From Microthyrium microscopicum (taxonomy: Eukaryota): a DNA stretch of 64,000 nt. The notes under the pieces are model-generated. The model was not told the origin of the DNA, searched no databases, and saw only the letters and a list, made by a program, of their open reading frames with translations. Location of the stretch: assembly GCA_010405405.1 (NCBI GenBank), contig MU004232.1:639481-703480 (forward strand). Reading direction: 5' to 3'. Within the stretch, counting starts at the first letter, position 1, and every line of letters starts with the position of its first letter. Shown in pieces: positions 24,034-59,670 of the stretch. Position numbers and translations under genes: made by a program.

Positions 24034-24441
24034 TCGTACAAATTCGATGGGAGGTAAAGACTTTGATGGGAAGTAGCGCACTTGATGGGAGATGGCGCAT
24101 TCATCGGGAAATGTGTACGCGGAGAAAAAATGGACGTCAAGGAGATATATTGCATTTCAAGCGAAATTTTGATTACACTCGATGGGAGATATCGCACTTG
24201 ATGGAGCCTTTTAAAGAGCGATTGACGATACTCGAAACGAAAAACAAAAATTGAGACCTGGTTGGACCAGGGAGCCGCTTGCCATCATAAAAATAAGAAG
24301 TGACGTTCACCCTCTAGTTTGCGAGTAGTTACCGAGACCAGGAGTTATATCGCTGTCAGGCTATCAGTCTATCATAATTAATTTGATCGCTGTGCTGTCT
24401 TTCGACATGAGATGCGATGGTAGCCATCAAGTGCTATGGGT
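24034..24441. repeat. Clusters of 19-bp-period CCCATC-N6-GATGGG units (degenerate)
   Basis: GATGGGA recurs at 24046, 24065 and 24084 (period 19); again at 24181 with GATGGAG at 24200; units gacatgagatgcgatggta and gccatcaagtgctatgggt at 24404-24441. Confidence 0.75.
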
Positions 24442-24493
24442 GCCACGTTTCTCGGGTTGAGCACACAGAATGGCAGCATAAAAGTGCATTTGC

Positions 24494-25454
24494 TCAACCT
24501 TTATTCGGCGCGTTGCCATAGATGTGCGGAGCCTCGCGTTTAATCCAGTCCGTAAGTTTGGAATTTTCCACTATTTCAGCAGCCCATCGATCCGGCACTT
24601 TGACCTCCAGTATCAAGCTTAAATACGCTAATACCAATGCATCCAGACTACTCGGAGATTTGTTAGACAGGAAATACCGCTTCTTGCCGAGCAGCTCCTC
24701 TAGTGGCTCCAGAAATCTAGCGACAATCGACTCGAGTCGCATACGTTTCTGAGCCTTTGAGAGAATCTCTTTGCGATTGCCAAATCCTATCTTTTCGGTG
24801 AAGCTTGCGGAGGCCGATGCTGATGGATCCACACCCCCAGTTCGCAGGCTGATTGGCTGCATGCGTGGCTCATCGTCAATCTCGCCCAGAATAGTCGCGA
24901 GACCAAGATGTTCTGTCCGCTTCTCTGCGGCTTTTTGATGTGCTGGTGGGATAGTGTAGTTGGCGTACAGTGGGAGAAAGGCGGTGTATGCTGGTCGGGT
25001 TGTTGAGTAGTAGTTTTCGTAGGTAATAAATAGATAGAGATCCAGGAGCTGAGTTCCCAGTGTTAATACATGGGATGACCATCTAAAGGGAGTTAGTTTC
25101 CAAGCTCTGTTGGCTTTATAAACTCACTCACGCTGTGCAGTCCGCCAATTCGTCCTCGTTCATCCAAGAGTTGAGGTCCGAATGCCCATTGATCGAGTCG
25201 CAGCTCCCAACATGTTGAAAGATGTTTAATATTCCGGCAATCTCCTTTTCACAAGAACAACTCAAAACTGGAAATTGTCCATTTGGACTTTGAGACGCGT
25301 CCCAATCCGATATTATGGTCCAGTTCACTGCATTGTCCGTCGTTCGCCAGAGCAGTTGAAAGTACGCGATCGCCGCCAGACAATCAACGTTCAACGATGG
25401 AAATGGGAAACCATCTCCGCTTGGCCAGATTTTCAGATTCAGCCTCGATGTCAT
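24494..25454 (-). CDS. sam37: Mitochondrial SAM complex subunit Sam37 / metaxin
   Basis: N-terminal PSLNVDCLAAIAY..SPNGQFPVL; exon 2 has LLDLYLFITYENY..TRPAY; C-terminal GST-like LEELLGKKRYF...PSSLDALVLAYL; one intron at about 25082-25130. Confidence 0.85.
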
Positions 25455-25622
25455 AATTGTAAAAGTTGACAGATGCAAAGAAAACTTGTTGAGAAAGATC
25501 GATATCACATGATGCTGGTAAAAGTCCTTATGTCGCCCCTTCCCCTTTTGGGGCGATATAAATCGCTACCTCAGAACAACATTCAGATCCAACCTACGTC
25601 TATTGGAACAACCAACACAAGG

Positions 25623-26401
25623 ATGCCTCCTATCAGACGGTACCTACGAGTGACACGCTACACAGTCCTCGAAGTCCGGATACATCTCGATGACCCCGGA
25701 CAAATAGCATGGCTCTTAAGAGGCAGCGATCCAGCACTCCGACGCATCATCGACTCCATCCGTCCACTAGTATTGCCCAAGTTACGAGAAGAAAATGAAA
25801 GAGCAAAGGGAAAATCAGCAGCCAAAAAACGCGGCGTCAAAGACACTGTCATCCAAGGTAACTTTCATGAATCCAACAATGCCCTAGAGATAGTGATGCC
25901 TTTGCTCATGCGAACAATATAGATGATTTCGAAGTATCGGTCTTTCTTACAGATTCGTCAACTCGCCACCAACTTCTGACGAAGAGCAAGACTTTTTCGA
26001 CTGCGAAACGTGGTAATCTCAAGGGCTGGCTGGAAGCTACTGGCTCTACGCGCAAGACCGCTGAGGGCACGGCTGATGATGCGATTGAAATCCGCGCTGA
26101 GTCGCCAGATAACGACATTTCGCTAGCGGACATCCCCATGGCTGGGAACGACGCGGAAGCGGACGCTGGCAACGAGCCGGTGCTAGCGAGTGGGGGCGGT
26201 GATGATGACAAGAAGCTAATACCGCGCACCTTCTACGATGGCTTCAGCATCTATGGCCGGGTGTTATGTCTTGTGATCAAACGACGGGGCCTTGCTACCT
26301 CGACAGTGTCAAAGGCATCATCGAGCCAGCAGATGATGGAGAGTTGGGTGTCGACTCAGGCCGCGCAAGGCGGAACTGTGGATGACGGAGACGCCGGCTG
26401 A
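25623..26401 (+). CDS. Hypothetical protein resembling a fungal uncharacterised family, 2 exons
   Basis: MPPIRRYLRVTRYTVLEVRIHLDDP...; GTAACT..ATAG intron at about 25858-25922; C-terminal DDKK...YDGFSIYGRVLCLVIKRR. Confidence 0.85.
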
Positions 26402-29412: not shown

Positions 29413-29434
29413 GATGATTGATTGATTGATTGAT
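29413..29434. repeat. (GATT)n microsatellite
   Basis: gatgattgattgattgattgat read directly. Confidence 0.85.
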
Positions 29435-35400: not shown

Positions 35401-36709
35401 CATCATGTCCAAAAGCACTCCTGTTAGAGCATTACACCCAGGTAATTCTCTAAAAAGCTGCGTGCTTTGAATTTGCATCTTTCGATTTTGACACGCTTCA
35501 TATATGCAAATATTAGATAGAACTGCTGAAAGTATTACTGCTAGGTCTAGCTGCCTTAAAACATAATAAATGAGCGCTTTCAGACTTAGGCGTCATGCAC
35601 TGGATATCGACGATTGCTTCCTGAGGCAGAATATGCTCGAATATAGATGGCCGACCAAAGCCCAGAGTCTGGAGATGTTTGTTGCGGCAGAGTGAGTGCT
35701 GAGGGAGCGCAAGACAAGCAGTGGTCGGCTTTGACTGAAAGCTTTGGGCTCATAACATCATGTTTTGGCATCTACTATAGAGCAAACCGCACGTTTGGAC
35801 TATTCCAACTCATTCTTCAAAATGTCAAGTCAAACAAACTCTTTTCTCCTTATAGAGTTGGCCACAAGCCCAGTTCCCACGATCCCAAAATCCCGAACTT
35901 CCCAGGAACCATGACACAGTGCCCGGTACTTCCGTCTGCAATAAGTAGCTCTGTTAACCACTACAATATCCCTCGGGATGGGATGAAACCATGGAGCCGA
36001 CTTCCATCAACTTCCTTCTCAGAAAAGTCGCCGGCATATGGATCGCCCGGACAAGTCTATGCGGTGTTAATCCAACCTGGTCTGCATGAATTTGGTAGTG
36101 GTCTCCTTGTGTATTTTGCCATCATGCCTAGCAAAATCCGAAAGTATAGCGTAGTATAATAGCATTTTGCTGATTCATCCTTGTGGCCTCAAGCCTCAGG
36201 TAAAACAAGCAAGATCATTATCGATTGAAATTTCGAAGGAGTTTTGCTCATAAGTCTTAGTACTTTTCCCGGCTTCAAACCCATTCGAGTTGCTCTAAGG
36301 CTATACTTGATTTCTTAGCTCTAATCTAGCGCAAGATAATAGTAGTTGAGTCCGAGAGAACTTTAGCACGAAGGATTACAGCTCCTGATTTGTTGATGGA
36401 GATAGAAAATTCAAAGAAGGAACGTGAAGGCGAGGCCGGGCTTGGACATCACAAAGTCCATTTGTCCCGGATAGAGAAATTGAAAAGGTACATATGTAGA
36501 TACCTTATTGAGCCAAGACTCTTTAGTATTTTTATTTTATGTCTAACTCCACTGTTGTGGTATATACTTATGTTTATATACACTTGAAGTCATTAAAAAC
36601 AAGGCTACCGGTATATGTTTAGCAAAATGACCCAATTCGGCTGTTCTAGATTTTAGTAAAAGATCCAAAGCCTCAAAACAATTATCGCAGAGATGGCAAG
36701 TGGAAAGGT

Positions 36710-36922
36710 CAACGGCATGGCAAAATAAATGGCGTACTCCCATCAACTCTGATGGCTACCACCAGCGCTGCTAACCAAAAGGCGCTTTAATTCCCATCGT
36801 ATCTAATAAATACTCCCAATCCGAACGCCCATTATGGCAAATAAAGCACTTAATAACAGACCGTAGCCTCTGGGCGCCATCAGAGTTGATGGGAGTACGC
36901 CATTCATTTTGCCATGCCGTTG
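36710..36922. mobile_element. MITE: 213 bp, 47-bp TIRs, 6-bp target-site duplication AAAGGT
   Basis: 36710-36756 is the reverse complement of 36876-36922 with 1 mismatch; aaaggt lies at 36704-36709 and 36923-36928; no ORF inside. Confidence 0.9.
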
Positions 36923-37534
36923 AAAGGTATTTGTGACCGTTGAGCTAGCTATAAGCTGCTAGAATTGACTTATCCGATACTTACTCTCTTGATTTTCGCA
37001 AGTGTACTTTAGCAAAACTCCCAAAAGTACGCAAAGAAGAGGAACTTGAGCGCCAGAGTAGAGCCTAACTGATCAATTAGTAAATACCAACTTAAAAACC
37101 TATAAGCATAAAGTGACAGTTAGAAGTAATGCTTAGCTCTGCCGCTTTCAAAATGGCTTCTATGCTATTATATATAAGCTTAAAGACTCGACATGAATTT
37201 TAAGATCTCCTAATCTCTAAGCGTCTTTATATCCAAAGTTCGAAGCTCTGTTATAAGGTTTACAGTCAAGAAAAGGATATATATAGCTCATGAAACAGCA
37301 TGATTGGTAGCGCGGCGGCCCTCAATTGAACGCTTCGTTTATTCTAATCTTCACTGCCTAACAATAGTCTCAACGCAGATGGCTAGGCTCCGGAGCCAGA
37401 CGATGTAGACTGTACCTCCTCAAGCAAAGCAATATGACCTTCAACGGGAACATCTCCACACTCAATTCCCCATCAGTCGATTGAGGCGCTTTTGTTCAAC
37501 ATTTCCATAGATAGGCCATTCCAACACAAACTAC

Positions 37535-38821: not shown

Positions 38822-39980
38822 GCTGTCACTGTGGACAAGAACATTCTTTCTAAGAATTTGTCGATTTCCGTTGTTTACGAATCCATCAACGTTGAAGTTA
38901 GAGTTCGATGCTGGCGTGGAAGCCGTTCCAAATGTGATTGGCCAGGTCGCAAAGGGGTTGTTGAATGGGGGTCATTGAATCGACAGGGGCGTTGTTGTTT
39001 GAGCCGATTTTATGTGAGAAGCACTATTGTTCATTTTTGGCGTATTGCTAGTAATACCATTTTGAAACCTTGTAAAAGCAGCAGAAAGCCGATGACAATG
39101 AGGTCTTGTATCGAAAGCTGGGAAGCTAGGCCCAAAGTGATGGGAACATCCTCGTCTTCATGTTCCGATGATATCTTTTTGGAGGTTAATTAAAAAAGGC
39201 AATAGCCTTTTGGGCTCTTGTATCCATGATTAGTGTTGGTTCGGGTTTTTCTTGTGGAGTCGGTATTAGTTGATATCTCAGCGTTTCCCAACGTCTTTAT
39301 CTTGATCAAAATACCTTAGTCTCTACATCAAACATAAAACCTAATAGTTCATGCTAACTTGCCTTTGAAGAGTACGAAAATGAAGTGCTAATATAATCAT
39401 GCGCAAGATACACCAGTCTAATGTCAAGCGGGAAGAGGACGTAGGCAGGGGAGTAGATACACTTCATTCACTATTCAGCTAAACTGTCTATTACTCTCCC
39501 ACGCACAAGACGCGGTCAAGAGCCAGACTATATATAGCCTACAACTACAACTCCCATTGAGCCATCAACCGCTAGCTCATGCTCCCATGATATCTATTCG
39601 CGCCACACTGATCAACCTAGGATCTAATTGTTGGTAAGAGACTGAAAATGTCCAGAGTCCAACACAATGTAACTTTTGATTTGTTTTCGTGGATGATGCA
39701 TTCGTGATTAACGTGATGGTGTTCGTAAATGTTTTGCTATTGTCCGCAGAGGGGCCACCGGTTCTACCGTACGGAAAAGGCTGCTGTCTCGTCACCGACA
39801 GCTCCAAGGAATTAGTGTTTAGTCGATGAGGATAGCATCATTGATGGATACTGTGTGGATATATGTCGACCAGGAGGTATCGCAGAAACAGAGAACACCA
39901 AAAAGCAAACTACTACCCGCCCGTACGGCAAGGCAAAGTCTTTCAAACAACAACAAGAAGCCGCTCTCGAGGAGGATAAC

Positions 39981-45719: not shown

Positions 45720-46481
45720 GGCTGCTGTCGGAACGTAGCTTTGCAACAGGAAGTACTAAGAATGGGCCAGTTGAGGATGTTTGCGGAGCGTATCTGCGTA
45801 AGGTCGAGGTATGGAGGAACGGTGGTGGGGGTCGTAGGCGGCCGTGGCAGCGCCGCGGATTGAAGGATGGGCGGATATATAGGTGCTGTGTGTTGTTAGG
45901 AGTGTATGAGAGAAGATGGGAGGCTATGTAAGACCACAGCTGTCTCGTTCACTCGAGGTCAGAGACAGAGAAAAAGTGAAGCCTGATCTCAGTGCAGGCG
46001 CGGGCAGTCTAAAGTGTCGATGCGGCGGTTGCAGGAACGGCCAATTTAATGCCAAGAGCGGCTCGGGAAGACGTCACTTTGCTGAGCCACGTCTGCTTTC
46101 CGCCCTTAGCCACGATCAAAGACAAGTTGACTAGTATGAGGAGAGACGTGATAGAGATCTCGTGAATGTCTTTGACAGATCTCTTTGAAATGAAACAGCA
46201 TAATGAACAACAATAACAAATCAATTCGCAAAGTTTAGCCTAACCAAAAAGAAGCAAAAACGCTACAATCCCATCCCGCCAACGCCAACATTATCAATGG
46301 GTATCAAGCGCCCTCAAGAGTCTTCTAACAAGCACAACAACCCCAAAGACTCCTTTCTAGTCAACGTATGTCTCCCCGTGAACGACTTTCTCCTGTCAAC
46401 GACCCCTTCTACCTTCCCAAGGCTTCTCTGCCTCCCAAGCTTCCCAACACTTCCCTTCCTGTCAAGAAACCACCTAAGACC

Positions 46482-49400
46482 CTAACTACGATCATGGCTC
46501 CTCAACTTCCGCCCAGGTCTCACACTGCCCACGCCAACACTCGCACTGAGTTCCGGCACTTTGACATTTTCCCCCATCATATTCTCCCCTCCATGGCGGT
46601 CTAGTGTTCCTGTCACAGTGCTGCGTGCGCCGACTCGGCGCTTAACCGGGCCGTCACGCTCTGCTGCTGCGCGCGGTCTCTTAAGCGTTGGTAGAGCGGC
46701 GAGAACATCTTTTGTTGGTGATGGGATTGTTGGTAGTGTATTGAGTGTGTTGTTGACAGTGTTTGGATCCAATTCGCGTAGACCAGTCGACGTATTACTG
46801 CTGGTGTTTGACGAAGAGGTGGTTGGGCGCACAGGGGAGTTGGAAGATGCGGTGAAATCGATGTAGACGCGTGGTTTGGATGGTGATTTTGCTGGACTAC
46901 TATGTGGATGTGGGCCCGCAGATCTTAATCTCGCAAGGATGGTGTCGCGCGACGCGGTGCGTGGGAGGGAGGTTGGGTAGGCGTAATCTTTTGGTGTTGG
47001 TGAGGTTCCTGTTGGTACATACTCGTCTAGCTTTGCCCCTGTGATTTGGTCGCGTAGCTCAGTGAGTGGTTGGCGGAGTTCAGCGATTGGTATGAGAGAG
47101 TGAAGAGTTGCTTGGAGACCAGTTGTGGTTGAGGACATATCTGTGTCGAATGTGTTGGTGTGGTCGAGAGTGGTGGAGAGGGTGCTGAAGATGGAAGAGT
47201 ATGTTTCTTGTACAGTGGACGCGAGAGAGTTGAACGAGGCGAGGCGGGTGGCGTGGGCGGTGTTGTTTTGAGTTTGGATTTTGGAGACGATGGTGTCGAG
47301 GGTGGACATTTCTGTGTCGAGGTGCTCGACTTGCTCGGCGACGATGCGGGTTGTTTCGGAGTGGACTGATGATGTTACTTCGGTTAGAGCATCGGTGTGC
47401 TTGTTTGCGGCCTGCGAGATATTAGTATTGGCGAGGAGTGAGAAGTGAGTGGAACTTACAGCAAAGTCTCGTTGTATCTTGCTCTTCATGGTATCTCGAG
47501 ATTTGACCAGCTTACCGCTAAAGTCTCTGGATCTGGCTACCAAGAGCTCGCTATTCTTCTCGAAGGTCTCGCCAGCTTGTGCATGAGTTGCGCTGACCGA
47601 TCTAAATTGTTGTGGTAGACTTCCAATCTCAAGCATACGCAAGTCTTGCTGTTCGGTTGTAGCCTGAACCAACTGCTGGATCTTCGACATAAGCTCTGCA
47701 TTCTCTTTCTCTCGGATCTCCTTCTCCTTCTCCACCAAGCCCTCGAGGCTATCAACTGTTTGGGCCTGTTCTGTCGCAAGCTGAGAGTTCGCTACCGTCA
47801 TTTGACTTCGCAATTGGTCCAGCTCTTCCCGTTGCTCAACAATCTCTGTGCTCATCTCATCAAATGTACTCCGAAACTCTCGTCCCAAAGTAGCATACGA
47901 TGTATGTAAATCAGCATGAAACGCCTGAATTTCCTTCATAATTCCAGCAGAGATCCGTTGTGCTGCGACTCCAAGATCTTCCAGTCCAGCGCCAACTTTG
48001 GCCTTGACGTCCTCACGCAACGAGGCGACTTCGCCAAGAACTTCACTAAGCTCTGACTTTGCCTGCGCTGTTTGTTGTATAACGTCCTCACGAGCTTGTG
48101 TGAATGCTTCGCTGTTGTCTTTGAGAGTCTGTTGCGCGGCTGAAAGGTCGCGTACTTCAGTCTGTACAAATCCCAACATACGACTCGCAAGCTGATCAAC
48201 CAACATCGTCTGCTCAACCCGCAACTTCTCCAGCCGCTCATCCACCGCACTCGTCGTATAGCCAACTTGTTCCTGCGCCTCAACCCACCGGGAACGATGT
48301 ACACCGCTCAACTCAGACCGTCTTCGCACTTTCGCATGCAAACCCTCCACATCACCCGTCGCCTCATCAAGCGATGTGATTAACGAATTGGCGCGATCAG
48401 CCAACAACTGTTCACTTCTCGCATGCTGCGCCGCAACATACGCCTCCTCATCCAACGCCTTCTTCGTATGCCTCAACATCAAATCAGTACGCTCCAACAC
48501 ATCCTTCGTAGAATCAAGCTGTGCCTTTGTAGTCTCCGCATCCTTCTTGAGAAGCTGTGATGAAGCTGTGAGCGTGAAGAGCTCCTGGATCTTCCGCTCA
48601 AGCTTATACTCCATACTCTCAATCATCTCCTTCTGCTCCTTGATCATCGTCTTTTGCGCATCGGTTGATGCTGTCATTGCATCAAACGCATCTTGGGAGA
48701 TATAGTGCCCATTTTTGTGTCTTGTAGCCAAGAGCTCACTCTTCAATTTTTCAATTTCGAGTGTGAATTCTTTGAGTAGGGTCTTTTTGGGAATTATTTG
48801 ATTGATTTGCGGTTTATTTTTGATGTTCTTTGCGCGGAAGGCGTAGTCGAGTGTTGAGAGCGTTTCTTCAAGATTAGAGCGTGCGGGTGAGAGGGTGGCG
48901 ATGATGCATGTTTTTGTGCGACCACCGAGGGAGTCTTGGAGGAGACGGGTGAGTTTTGACTCGCGATAAGGAATATGTGAAGTTCGGTCGACGAGGCCGT
49001 TTATTACGCGCCCGAGTGCGACAAGGGATTTATTGATGAGACCAGCTTCCGTAGCACGCTTCTTTTCGGCGCCAGAATTCTTGATGTTTTCAGAGCCCGC
49101 GAGATCAACGAGATTCAATTTTCCTGTGGATACGTGCTCTTCGCCAGAATCGGTGGTATGTTTTGATTGTACGGAAATGGTGAAGATTGTGTGAGAGCGG
49201 GAAGAGAGATCGTTGCATTTTGTGGCTGCTACTTGGCGTTTATTGGAGCCTAGACGGAGGAGCTGGACACCTTTGCGGGCGTTGGTGATGTACGTTTCTT
49301 CCATGCCTTGGACGTAGGTTGTAGAGCCCTTTTTGTTGTCGCCGGAGACGATATTGAGCTTGATTGAGTCTTCAGTGGAGAGAAGATCGCGGAGCTCTTC

Positions 49401-50066
49401 GTTGTATAGCTCAATAAAGGAGATGCGGACTGTATTTTCGGGTGCGGTGCCAGATTTGGGAGAGTTTGGAAGAGCATCTAGGCGGGCAAAGAGTTCGTGA
49501 AGTACGCGAGGAACGATGCCGGCTGCTTCTGGCAAAGGGTCTTGATCGGTTATATCGCCGGACATTGTGTATGTCTTTCCGGTTCCAGTCTGGCCATAGG
49601 CAAATATTGTACAATTCAGGCCTCGAAGAACCTCGTCCAGCACTGGTGTAACAACTTCGTCAAAGACCATAACCTGATCTGCTGCCTGGCTGAAAACGCC
49701 ATCAAAGTGATATGTCTTATTGCTAAGAGCATTTGGGCCCATGGATATATCGACGCTCTGGCCTTTGACACCATTGGTAGAAACTACCACGCCAGAGTTT
49801 TCGCGGACTTCGCGATCATTTCTGCCTCGACATCGGACAAAAACGTTGATATTGGTTTCGCCTTCAGTGCTTTCTCCTTCATATTCGCGCTCCTTGCGCT
49901 TGGTACCAGCGGTAACTTGAGGAGATGATCTCGCCCGGCCAAATTCTGCGGGAGACTGGGATCGACCGGTGAGTGATGGGGTGACTGAGTTTGCTCGTAG
50001 GCCTGACATTGCGCGTCGTGGAGGTGGTGGAGGCATATTACGCACTCTAGACGGAGGACGCGACAT
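46482..50066 (-). CDS. bimC: Kinesin-5 (BimC/Eg5) mitotic motor
   Basis: Motor motifs FAYGQTGTGKT, SSRSH, LVDLAGSE and HIPYRESKLTRLLQDSLGG; coiled-coil stalk; BimC-box-like YVPTGTSP; probable 48-nt intron at 47412-47459. Confidence 0.96.
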   Translation of the reverse strand: MSRPPSRVRNMPPPPPRRAMSGLRANSVTPSLTGRSQSPAEFGRARSSPQVTAGTKRKEREYEGESTEGETNINVFVRCRGRNDREVRENSGVVVSTNGVKGQSVDISMGPNALSNKTYHFDGVFSQAADQVMVFDEVVTPVLDEVLRGLNCTIFAYGQTGTGKTYTMSGDITDQDPLPEAAGIVPRVLHELFARLDALPNSPKSGTAPENTVRISFIELYNEELRDLLSTEDSIKLNIVSGDNKKGSTTYVQGMEETYITNARKGVQLLRLGSNKRQVAATKCNDLSSRSHTIFTISVQSKHTTDSGEEHVSTGKLNLVDLAGSENIKNSGAEKKRATEAGLINKSLVALGRVINGLVDRTSHIPYRESKLTRLLQDSLGGRTKTCIIATLSPARSNLEETLSTLDYAFRAKNIKNKPQINQIIPKKTLLKEFTLEIEKLKSELLATRHKNGHYISQDAFDAMTASTDAQKTMIKEQKEMIESMEYKLERKIQELFTLTASSQLLKKDAETTKAQLDSTKDVLERTDLMLRHTKKALDEEAYVAAQHARSEQLLADRANSLITSLDEATGDVEGLHAKVRRRSELSGVHRSRWVEAQEQVGYTTSAVDERLEKLRVEQTMLVDQLASRMLGFVQTEVRDLSAAQQTLKDNSEAFTQAREDVIQQTAQAKSELSEVLGEVASLREDVKAKVGAGLEDLGVAAQRISAGIMKEIQAFHADLHTSYATLGREFRSTFDEMSTEIVEQREELDQLRSQMTVANSQLATEQAQTVDSLEGLVEKEKEIREKENAELMSKIQQLVQATTEQQDLRMLEIGSLPQQFRSVSATHAQAGETFEKNSELLVARSRDFSGKLVKSRDTMKSKIQRDFAVSSTHFSLLANTNISQAANKHTDALTEVTSSVHSETTRIVAEQVEHLDTEMSTLDTIVSKIQTQNNTAHATRLASFNSLASTVQETYSSIFSTLSTTLDHTNTFDTDMSSTTTGLQATLHSLIPIAELRQPLTELRDQITGAKLDEYVPTGTSPTPKDYAYPTSLPRTASRDTILARLRSAGPHPHSSPAKSPSKPRVYIDFTASSNSPVRPTTSSSNTSSNTSTGLRELDPNTVNNTLNTLPTIPSPTKDVLAALPTLKRPRAAAERDGPVKRRVGARSTVTGTLDRHGGENMMGENVKVPELSASVGVGSVRPGRKLRSHDRS

Positions 50067-51270
50067 GATGTGAGATATTTCCTGAGGATGGGGTTGAAAT
50101 ATCGGAGAAATCAGGGGTGGTGAAGAAACTGCCGGTTTTGAGCAGTGTTGATGATGTACAACATGTGGTGGAGGGGAGAAAAGGTAAACACAAGCAAAAA
50201 GGTAAACAAAGCACAGACCAATCGTTCCTGCTCTAGCAAACTCAACACCATAATCCTATCACCACTTTCATTTTATGATAGAAATTCTTCTAAAGCTCAT
50301 TGTCTTTCAGTGTCGCATCCGTATGTTGCATTTCAGGCATTATTCCAACTCCAATCTCCAGCGATTCGTCGGATACTGTATCAGACTCACGATCAGGGGT
50401 GAATTTCCCTCATGTAAAATCACATTTCCTGATGATATGTGATGAGACAACAAGAACATCGTATTCCCATTGCACTCGATGGCTACCATAACATGCGCTG
50501 GGCACCACCAAACTTGATAGGAGATTCGATGTTTTGTCATTTGGTCCTTTCAGAGCGTGTGCTTTGATTGATCTACACTGACCAAGTCCATGGGCTACTA
50601 CTGAGAAGTCGTCTCAGCAGTGATGCTTCCATGATTTGTACTACCATGAGGCCGAAGATTATCGGAGTGGTGATGATAAGTCTACTGGCTATTTTGGAGA
50701 TATAATTTCGCCCCGATGTTGTGTTCTCCATGCTAAAGATCTGGAACATCTCTCGAAAGCCACGAGGGCCACGAGAGCCAGGGACCAGGCCTGCAGCTCT
50801 GCTTCATTAGTGCCGATTGACATCCGCCTTGCACACCAACCTGGACCTGGTAACATCTGATCTCTCCTTAAATTCTGATCCACGACTGAAGCCAAATGTC
50901 CTTGGATCTTGTTCGGAATCTACTCCGTAACTTCATTCCAAGTCGAGGTTTACGTACATTTTAACCCCACATTTCGACCCCACACATGCAGCAAGGGTAA
51001 GCAACTCAACACCATCAGATCACAACTGTGGAGCAGAGCTCTAAGAAGACGGCACGGCACACGACTTGCTCTTCAAAGCTGCAGGTCGTCTGCATCACAC
51101 CATTATCCCCTCTCAAAAGGTCCATACCACTGCAACCAACCTCACGCGAGCACTTGAGTTTCTTCCGCTTCGCTTCTGCAATACGACTCTTTTAGGAGCA
51201 TGATAGTTCGCAAGATACTTCATTATACAGAGTACACGACAATAGAGATAGAGTAGATCCGTCATAGAAA

Positions 51271-52418
51271 ATGTCTTCCTCAAACGATCCAGCCGCTGGC
51301 TTCAACGAGCGCTTCTTTCGATACTTTCAACATGAGGTTACCGCCCTGCAGGAGCAAATGGATAGACTCGCCACCACGTCAATCGTGGGAGGCGAAAGAA
51401 ATGATGCGGTCGACCATTGTCTAGCCGGGATTGCAAGACTATCGCAAGAAGTAAAAGATGCGTCCAGCTACTTGCCCGCCTACGACCAGCGAACATACGG
51501 CGAAGTAAGATACCATTCCCCAAAGCCGCACCAATCCCCCATTTGGAACTTGAAGTCTGATATGTACAATAGGCCGTAAAAGCTCTTACCGAAAAATTGA
51601 ACACCGTCCGCAATTCCTTCGCCCCTAGGCCAAAGTTCACGTTTAAATCAGCACTCAAAACCCGAGCCCGTCCAACACCAGCTCCACCACCACCGCCTTC
51701 CGAATCACCCATTACCAACGGTACCAACGGTACCAGCACTATTACCAACTCCACCAACTCCAACTCTGAGGATGCCATCACCGCCCAAATCAACGACCTC
51801 CTCCGCCAAACAACAACGCCAACAATCCAGCGTCCCTCCTTCGACGCCTCCTCCTCCATCTCCATAACCAACCAAGCATCCATCTACGCCGCCATACAGG
51901 CCCCCTCGCGCGGACGACCAGGCGGTCGCGCCGCAAAAGTTACCGATAACTCTGAAAGTGTCATTGATTTACGGGAGATCGCACCATCGACAGATCCATT
52001 CGCTAGCGTAACCATCAAAGATGTGGAAAAGAGCGTTGTGTTATGTGGGAACGTATCCGGCCCAGTACACATCACAGGCGTGAAGAATTCAGTGCTCGTG
52101 ATGAACTGTCGCCAGTTCCGGATGCACGAGTGTACAGATGTGAAGGTGTACTTGTATGCTTCGAGCCGGCCAATCATTGAGGATTGTAAGGAGATTGGGT
52201 TTGCGCCGCTACCGCTGGCGACGGGAGGTGGAGAGGTGGAGAAGGAGAATATGTGGGATCAAGTAGATGATTTCAAGTGGCTGAAGGCGGAGCAGAGTCC
52301 GAACTGGAGGCTTATCAAAGAGGATGATAGATTTGGAAAGGAGATTTGGGAGACAATCAAGGGGGAGGAGAGCGTTGATGCATTGGGGACGGCGTTGAAA
52401 GCTTTTGGGTTGACATAG
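51271..52418 (+). CDS. Tubulin-specific chaperone C (TBCC)
   Basis: N-terminal helical domain (YLPAYDQRTY) and C-CAP/TBCC domain (CRQFRMHEC...SRPIIEDC...F.P...NMWDQVDDFKWL....SPNW); one intron. Confidence 0.92.
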
Positions 52419-53025
52419 AGCCATATATTGGCGCGTAGCCAGTGGTTTATATTCGAAGACAAGGCCTTACATGAAGTCTTATTGCATAATCACTTCGTTT
52501 ATCTCTTGGAATAATTACTAAGAGTCAGAAAGAAAAGTTGTCGTCTCCTTGACCTCAACCTTCAAAGCTCGACTTGAATATCGAAGTCTGACATAAAACC
52601 GTATTTTCAACGTGCATTTGTCTTTAACTCCAGCATTTCTATATTTTGAAAGGCGTTATGGGTCCCCACTATGATTTGAACTGTATCATAACAACCAACC
52701 GGTGTGACATAGCCTCCGGTTCGTTCATTTTCATCTGCACTTACACAGCCTCCCTCCTCCGCCTGATATAGATTGCTGTCCCGCAACACATTTTCAACAC
52801 GCCAGAGACGATTTTTCATCAATCCTACTCACATTCGCACAATACGATCAACTGCTCTGGACACCATCGACTCTGCTGGGAATTAGCGAGTGCGCTGGGA
52901 GCCATCAAGTACGCTACCCAAATCTTGCCAACTCATCACCTCCATCTCAAAGCCGACTCCGACTGCCATATCACCACTCACATCCCTCCCGATCCAGCTT
53001 CCAAGCCACATTCCAGAAGAAAACG

Positions 53026-53739
53026 ATGCCAAAGAACAACCTCATCCAACTCTCCGGCCCACCCGGTTCCGGAAAGTCAACAACAGCCCGTCTTCTCAGC
53101 GGCCCGCTCAACGCGACCATAATCGACAATGACCTGCTAAAGTCGTTCTTCCTTGAGAACTCCGTCACGTCTGGTGCTATAGATCCCTTTGACGAGGCGG
53201 CGAAGTTGGCGTATCGACTGCAGTGGGTTCTTGCTGAGGAATTTATGGCCCAGGGAAGCACATCTGCGTCTCAGGAAGGAAAGAGCCAGGGGAGGGAAGG
53301 AGCTACGAGGAGTATCATCATCGACTGTGTCGTCAACTACAACGAAGTACTGGAGACAGGACAAGCACTAGCGGACAAATATGGCTGGATATATCACTAC
53401 GTGGAAATTCGGGCGGATAGTTTGGATTTACTGGATTCGAGGATGAAGAGAAGGGTGCCGTTGAGGAGTCAGAGGACGGGTGTTCTTGGGCGGCCGAGGG
53501 ATATGCCGGCTAATGCTCAAATGATCGAATCTGAAGTTGGAATGGAGGATTCTGGGGCGAGAAAGAACGGTTCTGGTGAAGATATCGGCGTGGAAGTGGA
53601 GAAAATGAAGCAGAAATTGAAGGAAAAGTGGATGAATCCGAAGCGGCCGGCAGATGGAGGCATCGTGGTGAGTGCTACGGGCGATCTAGAGGAGCGGAAA
53701 GTGTATATCTTGGACAAGATATTGGGGACTGACAAATAA
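53026..53739 (+). CDS. P-loop nucleotide/sugar kinase-like protein (AAA_33-like), intronless
   Basis: N-terminal Walker A SGPPGSGKST, IIDND, SIIID, and an LDSRMKRR lid motif. Confidence 0.82.
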   Translation: MPKNNLIQLSGPPGSGKSTTARLLSGPLNATIIDNDLLKSFFLENSVTSGAIDPFDEAAKLAYRLQWVLAEEFMAQGSTSASQEGKSQGREGATRSIIIDCVVNYNEVLETGQALADKYGWIYHYVEIRADSLDLLDSRMKRRVPLRSQRTGVLGRPRDMPANAQMIESEVGMEDSGARKNGSGEDIGVEVEKMKQKLKEKWMNPKRPADGGIVVSATGDLEERKVYILDKILGTDK

Positions 53740-53747
53740 TGCGTTTT

Positions 53748-53800
53748 CCCATCACATTCAATGGGCGCTATCGAGTACGTTAAACGAAACGTTCAATGGG
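53748..53800. repeat. 19-bp palindromic unit array
   Basis: cccatcacattcaatgggc then gctatcgagtacgttaaac; closely matches 55804-55841. Confidence 0.75.
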
Positions 53801-54624
53801 AGAAATGGCTGATGGCGATGAGTGGTTTGGATCAGCAAATATCACAAAAGTTCTGACCAAAATCTTACGAGCATGATCAAGCTCTGTCCGAAGTGTCTGA
53901 GCTGTTCCATAAGCTCTATCTAGGCATTTCATTCCAAGAATTAAGGTCTTGTTGCCGACATCGGTAGCGGTTGATTTCTGCCCACATTCGTCGCTCATGT
54001 ACTTCACTGATTGCCAGTACCGTCAACGGGTATGAAACAAACAGATACAAGCACATGCCAGCTACAAGGAGCAACATGATATGACCAACTCGACCGCCAT
54101 TATCTTCAGCATCACAGTCGAAGTCCCAGTCTGCTGCCATGGTGCCAAAATCAAAATATGATTTGGATGCTTGATTGAGTTATGTCTTACTACGGTAGGG
54201 AACGCAGGAGGCGGAGAATGTAGCAGCGATGAACATGCTGGATCTGAGGACTCAACAACTCTTCATGACCAACACCTGAAGAGCTTCAGCGTGTTATAGT
54301 GTTTGTACCTCCTTATTGTTTGGAAGGTGCTGGAAAGATGTCTTTGGAGGTGATGTTCTTGAGATCCACCTCAAATACCTACACAACCTCAAATCCAAGG
54401 AATCACAGGTAAGAGCAGTGACCTAAGTAGTTCACTTATGAAGCAATGGCGCCTGGAAGGTTCGAGTTGAGTAGAACCTGCTTTTCTACACACAAGCTCA
54501 TGCGCCTTTCATAAATCCATCTTCCACTACTTCCTCCACAACACTACCGCTTTACAGTATCGCTTTTCTCCAACAAGCAACCTCGTACAAGTTTTTCGCA
54601 CAACCGCCTTATTGCACTATCAGC

Positions 54625-55752
54625 ATGACGCAACATCCTGAAGTCCCGCGCATATCTCTATTTGACTCAAGACGAAGCGAAAGCAAACGACAACGATTTC
54701 CTCCACCAAAGCGACCATTGCGTCCTAAAGCTCTGCCACCATTAAAAGTCCTGAATCCGAAGACGCAAAAATTCGGATGCTACATCTGCTATTGTTGGGG
54801 CGATGAGCTCCAACATGACGAGATTCGTTGCCCTCGCATCAAGTACGACAAAGTCAAGCTGTCCCAAGATTGCAAAGCATGCCTTGAGCTTCACAAGCTG
54901 GCTGTCCAAAAAGCAGCACAACAAGACTCGCTCGCAGTTCGACCAGAACTTTATGCCGAAGAGCACGCTCTGATTGACTGCCCAGGCCTCCGCACTGTCA
55001 AAGATGAGCTACTTTTCTTGAAAAGCGTTTACGACGATAACCAGAAGATTGCGAACGGAAGTCGATCCAGCAACTCCGAAATCAAGGCTCATCGGACAAG
55101 AGTGCTTAAAGATATCAATTCGGCACCAAATACTGTGGGTTCAACAGCAAATCAGCTAACTTCTCCACTTCGCAAAGATACGAATCATGCTAGGTGGGCT
55201 AATGCCTCCATTCGATTAGCCATGACCCGGGACTACAGCAATGTCGACAGCGCTGCCACAGACTGTAAAAGTTTCTTGCAAGCTCAATTCCGCATCATGC
55301 ACATCTTTGGGACCAACGCCCAAGATCTGAGCTTTGTCAAACCGTCAAACTGCCCACAGCTGCTCTGGGATTGGTTCAAGGACGAAACACCTGAGGATGC
55401 AGAAAAATGGGCTCCAGGATGGTACAATGAAGGACCACAACATTACTGGTTCAAACGATGGCAGAAGGGCGAGCTGACACGTCGGGAACTCTACGGAAAG
55501 ACTCGCGTCGGGTTTGATACCACTCCTCCCAAAGTAAAAGAGTTCTGGTGGGGAGATAAACCGAATGATATAAGTAACAAACAGGAACCTGAGAAGCCAA
55601 AGCCGAAGTCAGCACCCTCAGTCCAGCAGACAGTAACATTTGCGAACTTTGATCAAAAGCTCGATTTTCTCACGCCTTACCTGGGGATGTGCTCGCCGCT
55701 GAAGTTTGGAAGCATGGACATGGACAAGATGGACATTGACGACGCTATATGA
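54625..55752 (+). CDS. Hypothetical intronless protein (375 aa), no recognised domain
   Basis: Long ORF with a C/A-rich leader; scattered Cys/His (CYICYC..H...C, C..C..H) and a Trp-rich C-terminal segment. Confidence 0.65.
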   Translation: MTQHPEVPRISLFDSRRSESKRQRFPPPKRPLRPKALPPLKVLNPKTQKFGCYICYCWGDELQHDEIRCPRIKYDKVKLSQDCKACLELHKLAVQKAAQQDSLAVRPELYAEEHALIDCPGLRTVKDELLFLKSVYDDNQKIANGSRSSNSEIKAHRTRVLKDINSAPNTVGSTANQLTSPLRKDTNHARWANASIRLAMTRDYSNVDSAATDCKSFLQAQFRIMHIFGTNAQDLSFVKPSNCPQLLWDWFKDETPEDAEKWAPGWYNEGPQHYWFKRWQKGELTRRELYGKTRVGFDTTPPKVKEFWWGDKPNDISNKQEPEKPKPKSAPSVQQTVTFANFDQKLDFLTPYLGMCSPLKFGSMDMDKMDIDDAI

Positions 55753-55803
55753 GCTGTCAGTTCTAGTTCTAGAAAGGCGACTTTCGACTGAATGATGTGA
55801 GCT

Positions 55804-55984
55804 CCCATCGCATTCGATGGGCGCCATTGAGGGCGTTAATTCCCATCGTCATTGATGGGAGTTTTGTGGTTATCGGATCGAGGAGCCTTCAGAGTAAAAA
55901 TGCTAGATTTTGATCATTTTTTGGTGTTTCTTGAATAATGAGTTTTACCATCGCGTTCGATGGCAAATAGCGAGTGCGATGGGA
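55804..55984. repeat. Two 19-bp palindromic unit arrays (3 + 2 units)
   Basis: cccatcgcattcgatgggc / gccattgagggcgttaatt / cccatcgtcattgatggga at 55804-55860; accatcgcgttcgatggca / aatagcgagtgcgatggga at 55947-55984. Confidence 0.85.
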
Positions 55985-56154
55985 GACCAGAAGATGACTT
56001 GGTGAAATATGTCTTGTATTGTGTTTTATGGGTTCTTGCTCTTCCAATCGAGCCAACAATGGTATTAATTACCCAAAACAGCAATCAGTCCTCCTCGCTC
56101 TTTCCAATTGAGCCCAAATCCCTTCCCCAATCCGGAAATCACCTCCCCAAAAAC

Positions 56155-56923
56155 TCACTTTCTTCTCTTGTTGGGGCACTTGCCCATTTTGTGGCCCTCT
56201 GAAGTGAAGATTAGGCACCGAAAACTTGAAATTTTGGGGGAAAACTCACCTTGACCACAGGAGAAACACTTATCGCTCAAAATGGCATCTCTCGTGCCTG
56301 GAATGGGACAGGCAGAGGAGAGATGACCAAATTGGCCACAACCGCGACACTGAGTGCGCGGGCACTCCCGGTACATGTGACCGACGAGGCCACAACCGTC
56401 ACAGGTAGGAGCGTGCTTGTATTGACGCGCACGCTCCTCGCTCACCGGCTGAGCTTGGTATGGTCCCGCAGGACCGCCGAAATGGGTAACGGCATTGCCG
56501 TTTTGAGGAACGCCAGCAAGAAGACCAGCAGCACGGAAACCGCCATAGGCAGGGACGGCAGGAGCAGAAATGGTGTTACCATAAATGGTAGCAGGACCGG
56601 AAACGTAAAGACCGCCTACATAGGCGGGCGCCACGGCGACAGAGGCAGCAGCAGGCGGGGCAGGGGCAGGAGCAGGAGCAGGAGCAGGCGGACGGAGATA
56701 CGGGCACACCCCGTAGTGGTGGCCAACTGAAAAAGTGAGCTTCAGGCGACAAAACTTGAAAGATTGAAAGACTTACAGGTGCGGCAATGACCGCAAGGAG
56801 CGTTTCGGCACTCGCGAGCGCCGTGGCCATCTAAAAGCGAGTGTTAATATTGACATTCTGAGCGCATTGAGGTTTAGGCAACGTACTTAGGCCACAATTG
56901 AAGCAGAGGAGGTTGCTGGACAT
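56155..56923 (-). CDS. CCHC zinc-knuckle nucleic-acid-binding protein (CNBP/Gis2-like), 4 exons, 5 knuckles
   Basis: Splicing restores CX2CX4HX4C units: CFNCGLNGHGAREC, CGHCRTFGHHYGVC, CDGCGLVGHMYREC, CRGCGQFGHLSSAC, CFSCGQEGHKMGKC. Confidence 0.88.
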
Positions 56924-56983
56924 GGTGGTGGTGGTTGTGGTGGTGGTTGTGGTGGTGGTTGTGGTGGTGGTTGTGGTGGTGGT
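56924..56983 (-). repeat. (ACCACCACCACA)n simple repeat abutting the ATG
   Basis: 60 nt of ACC/ACA triplets immediately 5' of the start codon at 56923. Confidence 0.9.
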
Positions 56984-57291
56984 AGGTCTGTAAAAAAGGT
57001 TGTTGATGAGGTGAAGAGAGTGGGAATTTGAGGTGCGGAAGAGGCCTTTTAAGGTGAAGAGATCGGAAGCTAGTGCCTTCGTCACTGCCTAAACTTCAGC
57101 AATTGAGTTTTTGACAACGGCCATTGTCGGAGGCCGGTTGTTGTTTGGGAAGGAAGGGGTGGTTGTTACTTCCCTTCCAGGCAAGCACGAGCCCACGCTC
57201 TTGCCAAACGGGGAAGTCTGAGCTTGAGCCTCTTGCACTTGGAGAATGAAAGTTGAATTGGTGAGGAAATGATTGATTTATGGGGATAGCA

Positions 57292-58236
57292 TCAAGTGTT
57301 TACCAGGTTGACTTTTGGACGTTCTGGGCAATCGATCTGTAATGTGTTAGTGAAGAAAAAAATTACATAACGTGCTATGGGAGCCACCAGATGCGATGGG
57401 CAATTCAATTAAGTGTCAAAGATACAGTACTTTGAGGACTTGGGACGTCCAAATATTGGATTTTTGAGGATTTTTGAGACTTATCGAATATCCAATCGAG
57501 CATGATGGCCCCCATCGAGTGCGATGGGAGCCATCAGCTGCGTTGACTATATTGACGAAGTGCCAAAAAAGTGAGATTTTTGGCATTTGAGATGTCAGAA
57601 TACCAAAATCTGGAAGATTTTCCACACTTCTACAAATATCCCATCAAGTGTTATGGCTCCCATCGCACTCGATGGCGGCCATCAGATGCGTTGGAAGTTA
57701 TGAATAAACGGATGCAGGTGATCGAATCTTACCATTTGATGTCCGGGCTGGCCACATGTGAAGCAAAGATCGTTATCAAGAGCGCGCTTCACGTCTTTTG
57801 TGGCAACGGGGCAATTCGCAACAACGTGACCTATGCCGCTGCAGACTCTACAGATCGCGGCTGAGCAATTGCGACCAATGTGTCCTTGCTCGCCGCAGAT
57901 GTTGCATTTCTTGTCTGGACAGACTGAGGAGTGGTGGCCGCGACCTCCGCATTGTGCACACATCTGTTTTATGGGGTCAAACTGATTCGAACAGTCTTTA
58001 AAGGTGTGTCCGGTTTCGCCGCAGTTCCGACATGTTATGATGCGCTGCGGTTTCTTTGGTAGAGCTTCCCTGAGTGCAACCTTCTGAAGTAGAGAGGGTT
58101 TTGATTTGAAGGGTCGTGGATGTCGGAAAAGCCAGGATGATCCGGAAAATGTGCGCGCGCTTGTATGAGTGATAGGCGTTGAAGCAGATGAGCCTCTACT
58201 GGCTCTCTGGACTGCTCGTACGGATGATTGAAGCAT
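57292..58236 (-). CDS. CCHC zinc-knuckle protein with putative mitochondrial presequence, 2 exons, 5 knuckles
   Basis: Four complete knuckles in exon 1. The fifth (CFTCGQPGHQM|IDC) is completed only by splicing the GTAAGA donor at 57732 to the ACTAAC..CAG acceptor at 57337; last exon IDCPERPKVNLVNT*. Confidence 0.88.
57364..57696. repeat. Three intronic arrays of 19-bp palindromic units (2 + 3 + 3)
   Basis: Units at 57364/57383, 57492/57511/57530 and 57640/57659/57678; 57504-57535 and 57652-57683 are inverted copies (30/32). Confidence 0.9.
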
Positions 58237-58959
58237 TGTATGATAGTTGGAAAGCGTTTCTAGAAATTGAAGGATGTATTGGATGAGGACTGTCCGAATC
58301 GTATGGAGAGGACTTAAAAAGGCGAGCTAATATTAGTGACATGGCGCGCAATCATGGAGGTCAAGGCTTACAACAGGATTTTATGTCATCTCGTCAGATC
58401 TTGGAACAAATCTCGTTTAGCGAGCGAAAAAGGAGCAAGATCAGATATGTTGTTGAGATTCTAAAGATGAGATGTCGTTGGAAAATGAAAGGCGCGCCTT
58501 CCTCCAAAAAAAGTTCAGGCTTGCAAGAACAGGGGTATCCAACAATTAGCCAATCAGGTAGCTCTGAATGGTTCAGCCTTATGCGACAAGGCTGTAAAAT
58601 TACTACACTCCGTCCAACATAGAGAGCATTTGCAGATTCACGTACCCTTCGCACCTATCCTCTAGCCTGTATGGCGCCCTAAAGTACTTGGAAATAAGAC
58701 AGACGTAAAACACTACTGAGAAATGTGCTGTTGCTATTGCAGTTTCCGATATCTAGTCGGGAAAATACTATCGACGAGAACACTTGCGCTCCTGCCCATA
58801 ACAATAATGAGCTGTATTATACTCTGGAATCATTTCTTGTCCTTGTCTGCCATGGAAGCAAGCTGCTAGAAGATGATGTATCTGATAAATTCTGGCGTCA
58901 TTGACAGAGCCAAAACGATATCATGTCTTCTTAAACCTGTTGACCTTGTTTTTCTTAGG

Positions 58960-59124
58960 CTATTGGAACTGTTCCTTGCGTCCCTCTTTGCATTTAGCTC
59001 CTGCTTCATGCTGAGGTTTCTGGCTGCACCCCTTTCCATTGCACATCTTGGGCTTTGACTTCTTACTTCCCGCTGCAAGCTCAGCGTCTTTTTTTGCTGC
59101 TTTTTCTGCGTGTTTCTTTGGCAT
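58960..59124 (-). CDS. Possible small Lys-rich protein (54 aa)
   Basis: MPKKHAEKAAKKDAELAAGSKKSKPKMCNGKGC...H....C has a biased, protein-like composition; no family recognised. Confidence 0.35.
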   Translation of the reverse strand: MPKKHAEKAAKKDAELAAGSKKSKPKMCNGKGCSQKPQHEAGAKCKEGRKEQFQ

Positions 59125-59632
59125 TGGAACCGCTTGTTGTGTGAATACTAGGGTTATTTTTCGGTAACGCTTGTGTGTAAATGTTTTGGTATAAGAGGGT
59201 GTATTGAGGGAAACAGAATGAGTATAGGTTTGCGGAACTTGGCATATTATAGCTCCCCCCAATAGCTTGAATATGAATTTATTGATGACATATCGACTTA
59301 GTGGGATCTTTGCATATCATATCAGTTGTGAATTTAGGTCACAGGAGCCTCTCTGATTGACTGGCCAAAATTTTGGTGTCATATTGATGAAAAGGTAGGC
59401 AATGGTAGCCGTCCAGATACGCATGTTCGCTTGTAAGATATCACACTGCGGAGCTAATCACTTCATACCCACGAGACACATGCCATCAGATTATATGTGA
59501 TATGAAAATGGACTTCGTTCTCTTACTGAGCATCCTTAGACCACATGAGACTTATTGAAATCTAATTTGAGATTTGCGATCCCACCACTCACTCATGGCG
59601 ATAACACAAATCTGCCACCAAATACGTTGGAG

Positions 59633-59670
59633 ATCTAAGCTGTCGATGGCGCCCATCGAATGCGATGGGC
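59633..59670. repeat. 19-bp palindromic unit array
   Basis: gatggcgcccatcgaatgcgatggg (59645-59669) is the reverse complement of 55804-55828 at 24/25. Confidence 0.85.

Follow-up and report, generated by a model that had tools for sequence, protein, structure and literature searches.

What kind of DNA accounts for the short palindromes, set exactly 19 bp apart, that recur at scattered places in a 64-kb stretch of the genome of the fungus Microthyrium microscopicum (contig MU004232.1, positions 639,481 to 703,480; here called the window)? A preliminary description, made from the letters of the sequence, had seen about 25 such motifs at six loci and offered two readings of them: a mobile but non-autonomous family by which arrays of a dyad site for protein binding are spread, or a cis-acting system of DNA or RNA hairpins. 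We argue here that the arrays are parts of longer copies, which descend from a common sequence, and that these copies make up an old, non-coding interspersed family, most likely a non-autonomous cut-and-paste DNA element of the MITE type (miniature transposable elements with inverted repeats) or foldback type. Most of the statistics given below are internal to the window, and positions are counted from its first letter.

Phased dyads and the common descent of the arrays

In register, the repeated unit is CCATC-N6-GATGG-N3 (19 bp), in which CCATC-N6-GATGG, the dyad picked in the preliminary description, and GATGG-N3-CCATC have equal standing. The core CCCATC-N6-GATGGG, with at most one mismatch, has eight matches where 0.12 are expected, and none of 100 dinucleotide shuffles reached eight. 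The half-site pentamers GATGG/CCATC number 222 (145 +/- 12 in 200 dinucleotide shuffles), and nine same-strand pairs have a spacing of exactly 19, against a mean of 0.195 (maximum 2) in the same 200 shuffles and of 0.17 (maximum 3) in 500 shuffles made within 200-bp blocks. CCATC-N6-GATGG was likewise found eight times (0.055 in the 200 dinucleotide shuffles, 0.05 in the block shuffles), and GATGG-N3-CCATC five times (0.065 in the dinucleotide shuffles), while all 16 of the CCATC-N6-GATGG dyads with no more than one arm mismatch lie inside array loci. Both motif frequency and 19-bp phasing are therefore well above those of shuffled DNA, and an origin of the arrays by chance was rejected on these shuffles.

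A position weight matrix (PWM) trained on the window gave 38 matches at 14 bits or more (1.1 in shuffles), a circular result in that training and scoring used the same DNA; the scoring was therefore redone with each locus in turn left out of training. In this form, with the rest of the window as the null, p was <1e-3 for 32 of the 37 in-register units. Seventeen of them beat every null position (with at least one such unit at each of eight loci), and the five that fell short of p<1e-3 were indistinguishable from background. The recurrence claimed in the preliminary description is thus well founded, and so is the register of its arrays of two to four units at an exact 19-bp period, but its count has to be revised: there are 13 arrays at eight loci, two of the loci (K and P in Table 1) having been missed and one (F) being longer than was supposed.

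Comparison of five copies pair by pair showed a gradient of identity, from 0.70 in the arms through 0.58 in N6 to 0.42 in N3, the last being close to the 0.39 of the flanks. The arms are therefore kept, as had been noted, but the centre is not free to vary as had been thought, since in most units it is GCAYTC or the reverse complement, GARTGC. Where these two orientations alternate, the palindrome lengthens and a long stem arises; folding gives the previously quoted stem of 13/14 bp at 57504-57536.

Are the arrays independent clusters of sites, or are they copies of something larger? The same order of unit variants is found in C, D1, D2, F, E3 and K, and again in each arm of M: a first unit of GCATTC type, a second of GAGTGC type with a decayed right arm, and a third of GTnTTT type. 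These also have in common a left flank of about 15 nt, AATAATGnGTTTT, so that the general anatomy of a copy is this flank, about three CCATC-GCAYTC-GATGG-NNN units, and a tail of about 70 nt that starts with ATTTGTG, in a monomer of about 140-148 bp. From the common unit order and flank, it follows that the arrays are copies of one element rather than separately assembled site clusters. Three copies (C, D1 and F) can be aligned together over 110-140 nt: D1 matches F in reverse at 75% identity over 87 nt (BLAST within the window), and C aligns to F over about 110 nt, including the tail of about 70 nt past the array, with homology between C and F spanning about 140 nt in all. A profile made from these three only (on which F, a training row, scores E=1e-38) detected E3 (E=2.2e-8), K (8.5e-5), E2 (2e-4, spacer included) and D2 (2.4e-4). 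When the profile was widened to eight rows, the rows not used in training scored 6.6e-8 (E2), 1e-4 (P), 2.1e-4 (E1), 1.1e-3 (A3) and 1.8e-3 (A1), and nothing elsewhere in the window was stronger than E=0.07. The copies lie in both orientations amid unrelated flanks. They descend, then, from a common sequence.

This descent gives a new meaning to the observation that arrays often come in pairs 60-120 bp apart. The pairing is real, but is better read as the head-to-tail arrangement of monomers of about 143-148 bp: at D the first dyads of the two copies are 143 bp apart, and at E the segments 57372-57545 and 57519-57693 are 67% identical over 175 nt, with a period of 147 bp. A spacer sequence common to the loci was considered and rejected, as spacers and flanks were compared in 342 pairings and clear likeness was confined to the two E spacers (z=9.5), the next best pair being the tails of C and F, and as the similarity of A to E and of A to D was confined to the units.

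For part of the window (41001-61000 only), comparison could be extended to three sequencing runs, X1, X5 and X6. X1 is of genomic DNA, and may be the source of the assembly. Of the 28 X1 contigs aligned to this part of the window, 26 fit it only in part, and loose ends fall at array edges (50465, 50497, 55802, 57537, 57657 and 57693). The segment 57653-57704 was matched, with 5-8 differences, at four or more other genomic places, of which three are on other contigs and one is a second site, far off, on the contig to which the window itself belongs. From these array matches on other contigs, it is evident that the family is dispersed beyond the window.

Where the copies lie

The features are collected in Table 1. 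Copies were found only in non-coding, mostly transcribed DNA, in settings that include 5' and 3' untranslated regions (UTRs), an intron and the space between convergent genes; the earlier statement that no motif lies in a coding exon holds as far as annotation allowed.

Table 1. Copies and arrays of the 19-bp dyad family in the window, with the intron that encloses locus E
Feature	Position	Strand	Description
Array A1	24035..24110	+	Four 19-bp units as direct repeats, only the (GCAYTY)GATGGGAG arm kept; TRF period 19
Array A2	24170..24207	+	Two A1-type units, starting 135 bp past the A1 start; 88% to A1 unit
Array A3	24405..24442		Two palindromic units; unit 24424 above all null positions
Element M	36709..36923		215 bp, with 53-nt terminal inverted repeats
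Copy K	50430..50526	+	Three units and left flank; 3/3 units above null
Array P	52864..52920		Three degenerate units, GCTGG replacing GATGG; 3/3 units p<3e-4
Copy C	53733..53875	+	Left flank, array and tail, ~140 bp; covered by RNA contig
Copy D1	55771..55921	+	3' UTR, sense; begins ~40 nt past the TGA stop (55750-52) of gene 54625-55752
Copy D2	55912..55995	+	Truncated monomer, head-to-tail with D1; conserved left flank AATAATGAGTTTTA
Locus E	57365..57697		~2.3 tandem monomers, period ~147 bp
Array E1	57365..57402		Within locus E
Array E2	57493..57549		Within locus E
Array E3	57641..57697		Within locus E
396-nt intron	57337..57732	-	Last intron of zf-CCHC gene (Pfam zf-CCHC); encloses all of locus E
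Copy F	59547..59704	-	Full monomer, intergenic
Copy H	61565..61613		Doubtful degenerate copy, outside the eight-locus count

Evidence of transcription comes from X5. The record of this run gives only a guess that it is RNA, and we have treated it as such because its contigs carry canonical GT..AG/CT..AC joints of 46-109 nt. Most copies between 41 and 61 kb are covered by X5 contigs. One of these (46310-56198) crosses K, P, C and D, all of which are thus represented in RNA. Arrays also form the ends of RNA contigs that come from other loci, in one case at a depth of 3223. Over 10.3 kb, with introns removed, the contig 46310-56198 takes in four genes on both strands (those for kinesin-5, TBCC, an AAA_33-domain protein and the product of open reading frame (ORF) 54625-55752), which indicates overlapping UTRs or read-through in a compact region, not a single transcript.

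Several copies lie close to the ends of genes. C is in the 3' UTR of the AAA_33-domain gene, in the sense orientation, its left flank taking in the TAA (53737-39) at which that gene stops; since this is the actual stop codon, the last codons of the gene may derive from, or overlap, the repeat. In the aligned left flanks, the same column holds a stop triplet in C (TAA, 53733-53745), D1 (TGA, 55789-55800) and F (TAG, 59690-59680, minus strand). A3 is about 50 nt past the stop (24494-96) of a minus-strand Tom37/Sam37-like ORF (Pfam Tom37/GST_C_6, ORFs 24494-25565). In all, three arrays are within about 10-55 nt of a stop codon. Four loci (C, D, E3 and K) can be oriented, in that both the orientation of the copy and the transcribed strand are known, and all four are in the sense orientation (two-sided p ~0.12); with n=4 this bias is only a lead. 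E3 owes its orientation to a match with the family profile on the minus strand (57730-57635).

The remaining copies are differently placed. K lies between the ATG of the kinesin-5 gene (50066, minus strand) and that of the TBCC gene (51271). As it is inside a plus-strand spliced transcript (seen as an RNA contig) upstream of the TBCC ATG, it is probably in a 5' UTR. RNA contigs in this region also show a plus-strand GT..AG intron (50199-50309) whose start is some 130 nt upstream of the ATG of the kinesin-5 gene, in the 5' flank of that minus-strand gene, which suggests either a long spliced 5' UTR of TBCC or a divergent non-coding transcript. P, which is covered by an RNA contig, falls within a stop-to-stop frame, yet 105-160 nt upstream of that frame's first ATG (53026), which is the first ATG of the AAA_33-domain gene. 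A1 and A2, M and F are all intergenic, A1 lying between the convergent citrate synthase (plus strand) and Tom37/Sam37-like (minus strand) genes. Three of the four A1 units have leave-one-out p values from 3e-5 to 4e-4, and A2 by itself has an insignificant family-profile score (E=0.21). The doubtful copy H, about 150 nt past the stop of a short-chain dehydrogenase gene, reaches 17.2 bits with the PWM (at 61571), yet only E=0.068 with the family profile.

Locus E enlarges to 396 nt an intron that would otherwise have a normal length of 63 nt. The intron is marked by an RNA joint (57336->57733, with CT..AC ends) in one contig, the shorter side of which is 29 nt. Without E, 63 nt would be left, and neighbouring introns are of 50-59 nt; it is these 63 nt, outside E, that hold the splice signals (GTAAGA as 5' splice site, ACTAAC as branch site and CAG as 3' splice site). 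This is an insertion-like context. After splicing, the zf-CCHC frame runs about 14 codons further, to a stop at 57292. Retention of the intron would make E part of the 3' UTR. Not far from the intron, a perfect 12-nt repeat, GTGGTGGTGGTT, is present in 4.9 copies (56923-56983) inside a run of 20 TGG triplets, at the 5' end of a minus-strand ORF (56923->56155) that has only a weak zinc-knuckle match.

The window as a whole is gene-dense and eukaryotic in character, with genes for kinesin-5, TBCC, DnaJ-X, squalene synthase, citrate synthase, Tom37, major facilitator superfamily (MFS) transporters and cytochrome P450. The reading frame for kinesin-5 is 100% identical to the protein that NCBI lists for Microthyrium microscopicum, a leaf-litter Dothideomycete. 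ORF 37535-38971 has no Pfam family; its HSHNDYW motif suggests that it may be a host gene resembling AIM6/PI-PLC-X. The ORF between C and D (54625-55752) was considered as a possible transposase or binding protein for the family and set aside, as it has no Pfam family and nothing about it suggests a transposase. Between 26000 and 36000 there are some 10 kb with no frame longer than 180 codons, of ordinary composition (44-49% G+C) and with no Pfam family in the seven frames tested; this interval, which may consist of intron-rich or lineage-specific genes or of non-coding DNA, holds no copy of the family.

Mobile element, host sites or hairpins?

The best-preserved copy, and the one that most resembles a transposable element, is M. 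Its arms (36709-36761 and 36871-36923) are 94% complementary, and within the window its terminal 29-mer is found at just these two sites. The element is flanked by direct repeats, AAGG or AAAGGT (4-6 bp, the length varying with the assignment of the terminal T/A to the arm or to the repeat), and is 66% self-complementary over its whole length. Each arm has one strong dyad (36740 and 36877) and a weak second unit in register: with M excluded from training, the inner dyads scored 16.0 bits, above all null positions, and the second units did not. Flank and first dyad align with those of other copies, and an internal sequence, GCTTTAATTCCCATCGT, matches D1 at 16 of 17 positions. The link between the arrays and a MITE at 36.7 kb that had been proposed is therefore real, consisting in a limited similarity (one strong dyad in each arm, the flank of about 15 nt and the 17-nt internal match). 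On this evidence, and because the comparison of M with the profile of C, D1 and F was insignificant (E=1.3), we regard its membership of the family as likely but not secure. A scan of viral contigs with the M terminus gave no match, an uninformative result.

Homology beyond the motif, copies in both orientations, unrelated flanks, extra copies outside the window and the termini of M together favour the first of the two readings offered in the preliminary description, a non-autonomous mobile family spreading arrays of dyad sites. How might such a family work? The phased GATGG/CCATC half-sites would be multimerised sites for a dimeric DNA-binding protein, of which the likeliest candidate would be the transposase of an autonomous partner outside the window, on the model of other DNA transposons and their subterminal repeats. 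Abortive repair, or unequal exchange or slippage between self-similar arrays, may have given rise to the tandems and the solo arrays. In fungi, repeat-induced point mutation acts only above a certain repeat length, and the copies, being shorter than this, may thereby have persisted.

Several results weigh against this reading, the insignificant profile score of M among them. M is the sole copy with the anatomy of a MITE (inverted termini and a flanking direct repeat): in none of the others (C, D1, D2, F, K, P, A and E), whose ends are fuzzy, could inverted termini be demonstrated, nor could target-site duplications be defined for them, with nothing convincing around D1, F or C. The copies are only about 60-75% alike, which gives no sign of recent movement, and no presence/absence polymorphism was seen, X6 having the same sequence where it covers the window and looking like the same strain (stretches uncovered in X6 were excluded as evidence). 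No transposase or other mobile-element domain was detected by Pfam in the 37 distinct ORFs of the window, so that the autonomous partner is hypothetical. The greater conservation of arms than of spacers is also to be expected from purifying selection on sites for a host factor, and sense orientation and proximity to stop codons could hint at a host function, although the numbers are too small. As for the ends of other copies, an imperfect repeat of 8-9 nt (TGAAGAAA / TGAATAAA) around E is a speculative possibility. Direct repeats of about 30 nt that bracket A (CGTAAGTT...TTTCAG; 23989-24020 and 24551-24580, 562 bp apart) were considered as element ends and rejected because the second is inside the Tom37/GST_C_6 coding region; they resemble mini-introns (CGTAAGTT...TTTCAGC), which we take to be a coincidence.

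Might the arrays instead be cis-elements of the host, that is, phased sites for a lineage-specific DNA-binding protein for which the repeat family was a mere vehicle? The protein, which could be a domesticated transposase or else a general factor of the regulatory, boundary or roadblock kind, would act at gene ends, in the nucleosome-free regions of promoters and terminators. It would then be understandable that A1 and A2 keep only GATGGGAG at an exact 19-bp spacing while the remainder has diverged, and that arms are 0.70 identical where N3 and flanks are 0.39-0.42; the same gradient, however, would be expected if only transposition-competent masters kept their arms, and many units are badly decayed, the five at background level included. 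Arrays at gene ends (C on a stop codon, D1 and A3 about 40-50 nt past stops, P shortly before an ATG) and the uniform sense orientation of the four orientable loci are in keeping with a host role, but the settings are mixed (5' and 3' UTRs, an intron, DNA between convergent genes), and no one function unites the genes nearby. Some further encouragement comes from a metagenome scan for two phased units, which found five contigs. Four of these seem to be unrelated palindromes or direct repeats of other composition, but the fifth (L002, a soil contig of 2891 bp and 45% G+C, with five ORFs and no Pfam family) has, at 1599-1700, three units of CCATC-AAAAAT/AAAAGT-GATGG-N3 in exact phase, with adjacent CATCAAA half-sites. 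Its arms and its N6/N3 geometry are those of the fungal family, and its centre is different. Against host sites as the whole explanation, the common unit order and flanks imply spread by copying and not convergent gain of sites, and the binding protein is hypothetical. We consider host sites unlikely, and in any case compatible with a repeat-family origin, which they do not replace. A bolder version, which we rate as quite improbable, would make the family a eukaryotic counterpart of the bacterial repetitive extragenic palindromic (REP) sequences and the REPINs composed of them: repeat-spread phased dyads (GATGG-N3-CCATC-N6, 19 bp) would be bound cooperatively by a single host-encoded or domesticated transposase-like protein, and would be retained in the sense orientation at gene ends, where they would serve, through roadblock termination or the definition of 3' ends for instance, as marks of where transcripts are bounded. 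If this were so, the geometry of L002 would point to a wider system of protein and sites.

The other reading in the preliminary description, that the hairpin itself is what matters, does not fare well. Arrays might act in transcripts as REP-like stem-loops (3'-end stabilisers, terminators or precursors of small RNAs), or in DNA as cruciforms recognised by an HUH-type enzyme, and there is a case to be made: four of eight arrays fold as single strands far better than their shuffles (E2, z -5.84; D1, -4.92; F, -3.27; A3, -2.90), most copies in the 41-61 kb interval are in RNA contigs, arrays from other loci form the ends of such contigs (including that at depth 3223), and several copies come directly after stop codons. 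The other four arrays, however, show no excess at the level of z -2 (E3, a borderline -1.86; A1, -0.40; P, -0.67; K, +0.28), and A1 and A2 have no inverted arm at all. Pairing between arms is also at the shuffled level: among 36 in-register units, 66.7% of cells are paired, the same as the shuffled mean (265 of 500 shuffles were as high), and none of the covariation measures exceeds shuffles in which the 3' arms were randomly redistributed. Substitutions in the arms destroy pairs without compensation; the two arms of each unit decay independently. It follows that half-site sequence and phase persist where the helix does not, and a hairpin function is not supported, the absence of covariation being joined by the failure of half of the arrays to fold better than shuffles. 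Rfam found no family in the window. We therefore think a nucleic-acid structure very unlikely to be the explanation. Almost negligible, finally, is the prospect that the arrays are promoter motifs (PAC-like GCGATGAG together with A/T-rich, RRPE-like runs) or products of chance or low complexity. PAC and RRPE are motifs of ribosome-biogenesis promoters, and the PAC core is CGATGAG. GCGATGGGAG is one position away from that core and A/T runs do occur between some arrays, but the core here is GATGGG, no neighbour is a ribosome-biogenesis gene (they encode kinesin-5, TBCC, DnaJ, squalene synthase, citrate synthase, Tom37 and a short-chain dehydrogenase), several arrays are past stop codons or in an intron, and the copies are homologous beyond the motif. 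The mobile family thus remains the reading that we prefer.

The family among known repeat systems

Among the listed sources that name Microthyrium microscopicum, as far as their accessible text extends, no work on its repeats was found. Provisionally, then, the family seems to be undescribed, a judgement made from the literature. It can serve as a cross-validated seed for repeat annotation in the genome of a Dothideomycete, comprising a consensus unit, a flank, a monomer length and one intact inverted-repeat copy. Being inside UTRs and an intron, the family also affects gene models, as in the case of the 396-nt intron and of the stop codon overlapping C. The phased dyads are a ready probe for a protein that binds them, and if sense orientation and proximity to stops hold genome-wide, they would offer an instance, among fungi, of gene-end elements that a repeat has carried into place.

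Bacterial REP sequences and REPINs, which are associated with RAYT transposases, provided the preliminary description with its first analogy. The likeness is one of form: both consist of short palindromic units, single or clustered, intergenic or just past genes, in many dispersed copies. Kinship is another matter, since the host here is a eukaryote, the palindrome shows no compensatory change and its stem is not kept, and the Pfam scan found no RAYT or HUH gene among the ORFs of the window. A short interspersed nuclear element (SINE) was also considered and rejected: ARAGORN found no tRNA in the window, there was no Rfam family, and the aligned copies have no A-tail.

Closer to home, Dothideomycetes have introner-like elements, which are multi-copy introns, long and structured, according to the available parts of the accounts (PMC3609843, PMC4457414). 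They resemble the present family in belonging to the same class of fungi and in being multi-copy and structured, and E does lie in an unusually long intron. Introner-like elements, however, are themselves introns, whereas seven of the eight loci here are non-intronic and at the eighth the splice signals are outside the repeat; we therefore rejected this identity.

The internal architecture finds parallels in other DNA transposons. En/Spm elements have 12-bp subterminal motifs. For Emigrant/Lemi1, it is documented that proteins of transposase families bind subterminal repeated motifs of a MITE (PMC1636448). Such repeats are like ours in being short motifs, direct and inverted, near the ends of elements, with a core that is kept and spacers that drift. 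Binding would have to be assumed for the present family, and its strict 19-bp phase and alternating N6/N3 dyads do not appear attributable to those systems. In Drosophila, the Foldback, Galileo and Tetris elements have inverted arms made of short tandem subrepeats and seed tandem arrays (PMC3573991, PMC4079207, again from partial texts). Structural plasticity and the seeding of tandems are features that recall the Microthyrium copies, and the arms of M, each with one strong and one weak unit, may be a counterpart of arms built from subrepeats. The Drosophila arms, though, are hundreds of bp to kb in length, and the elements belong to known superfamilies (Galileo to P), while here the arms are of 53 nt, with two or three units, in a fungal host and with no linked transposase.

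It is with fungal MITEs that the comparison is closest. These are described, in the accessible part of a study of Epichloe festucae that reports 13 MITE families and cites the mimp elements of Fusarium, as abundant, degenerate and near genes, including in UTRs and introns (PMC3227409). Most copies in the window differ from them in having no recognisable inverted termini or target-site duplications, and the core of the family is an internal array of 19-bp dyads, in head-to-tail tandems too. Like them, however, the copies are short, non-coding, multiple, degenerate and near genes, and M has inverted termini with a short direct repeat on either side. Small (about 140-215 bp), non-coding and homologous copies are dispersed over eight loci of the 64 kb, amid unrelated flanks. 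For all the regularity of its dyads, the family seems on present evidence to be an element of an ordinary kind: an ordinary, old, MITE-like family.

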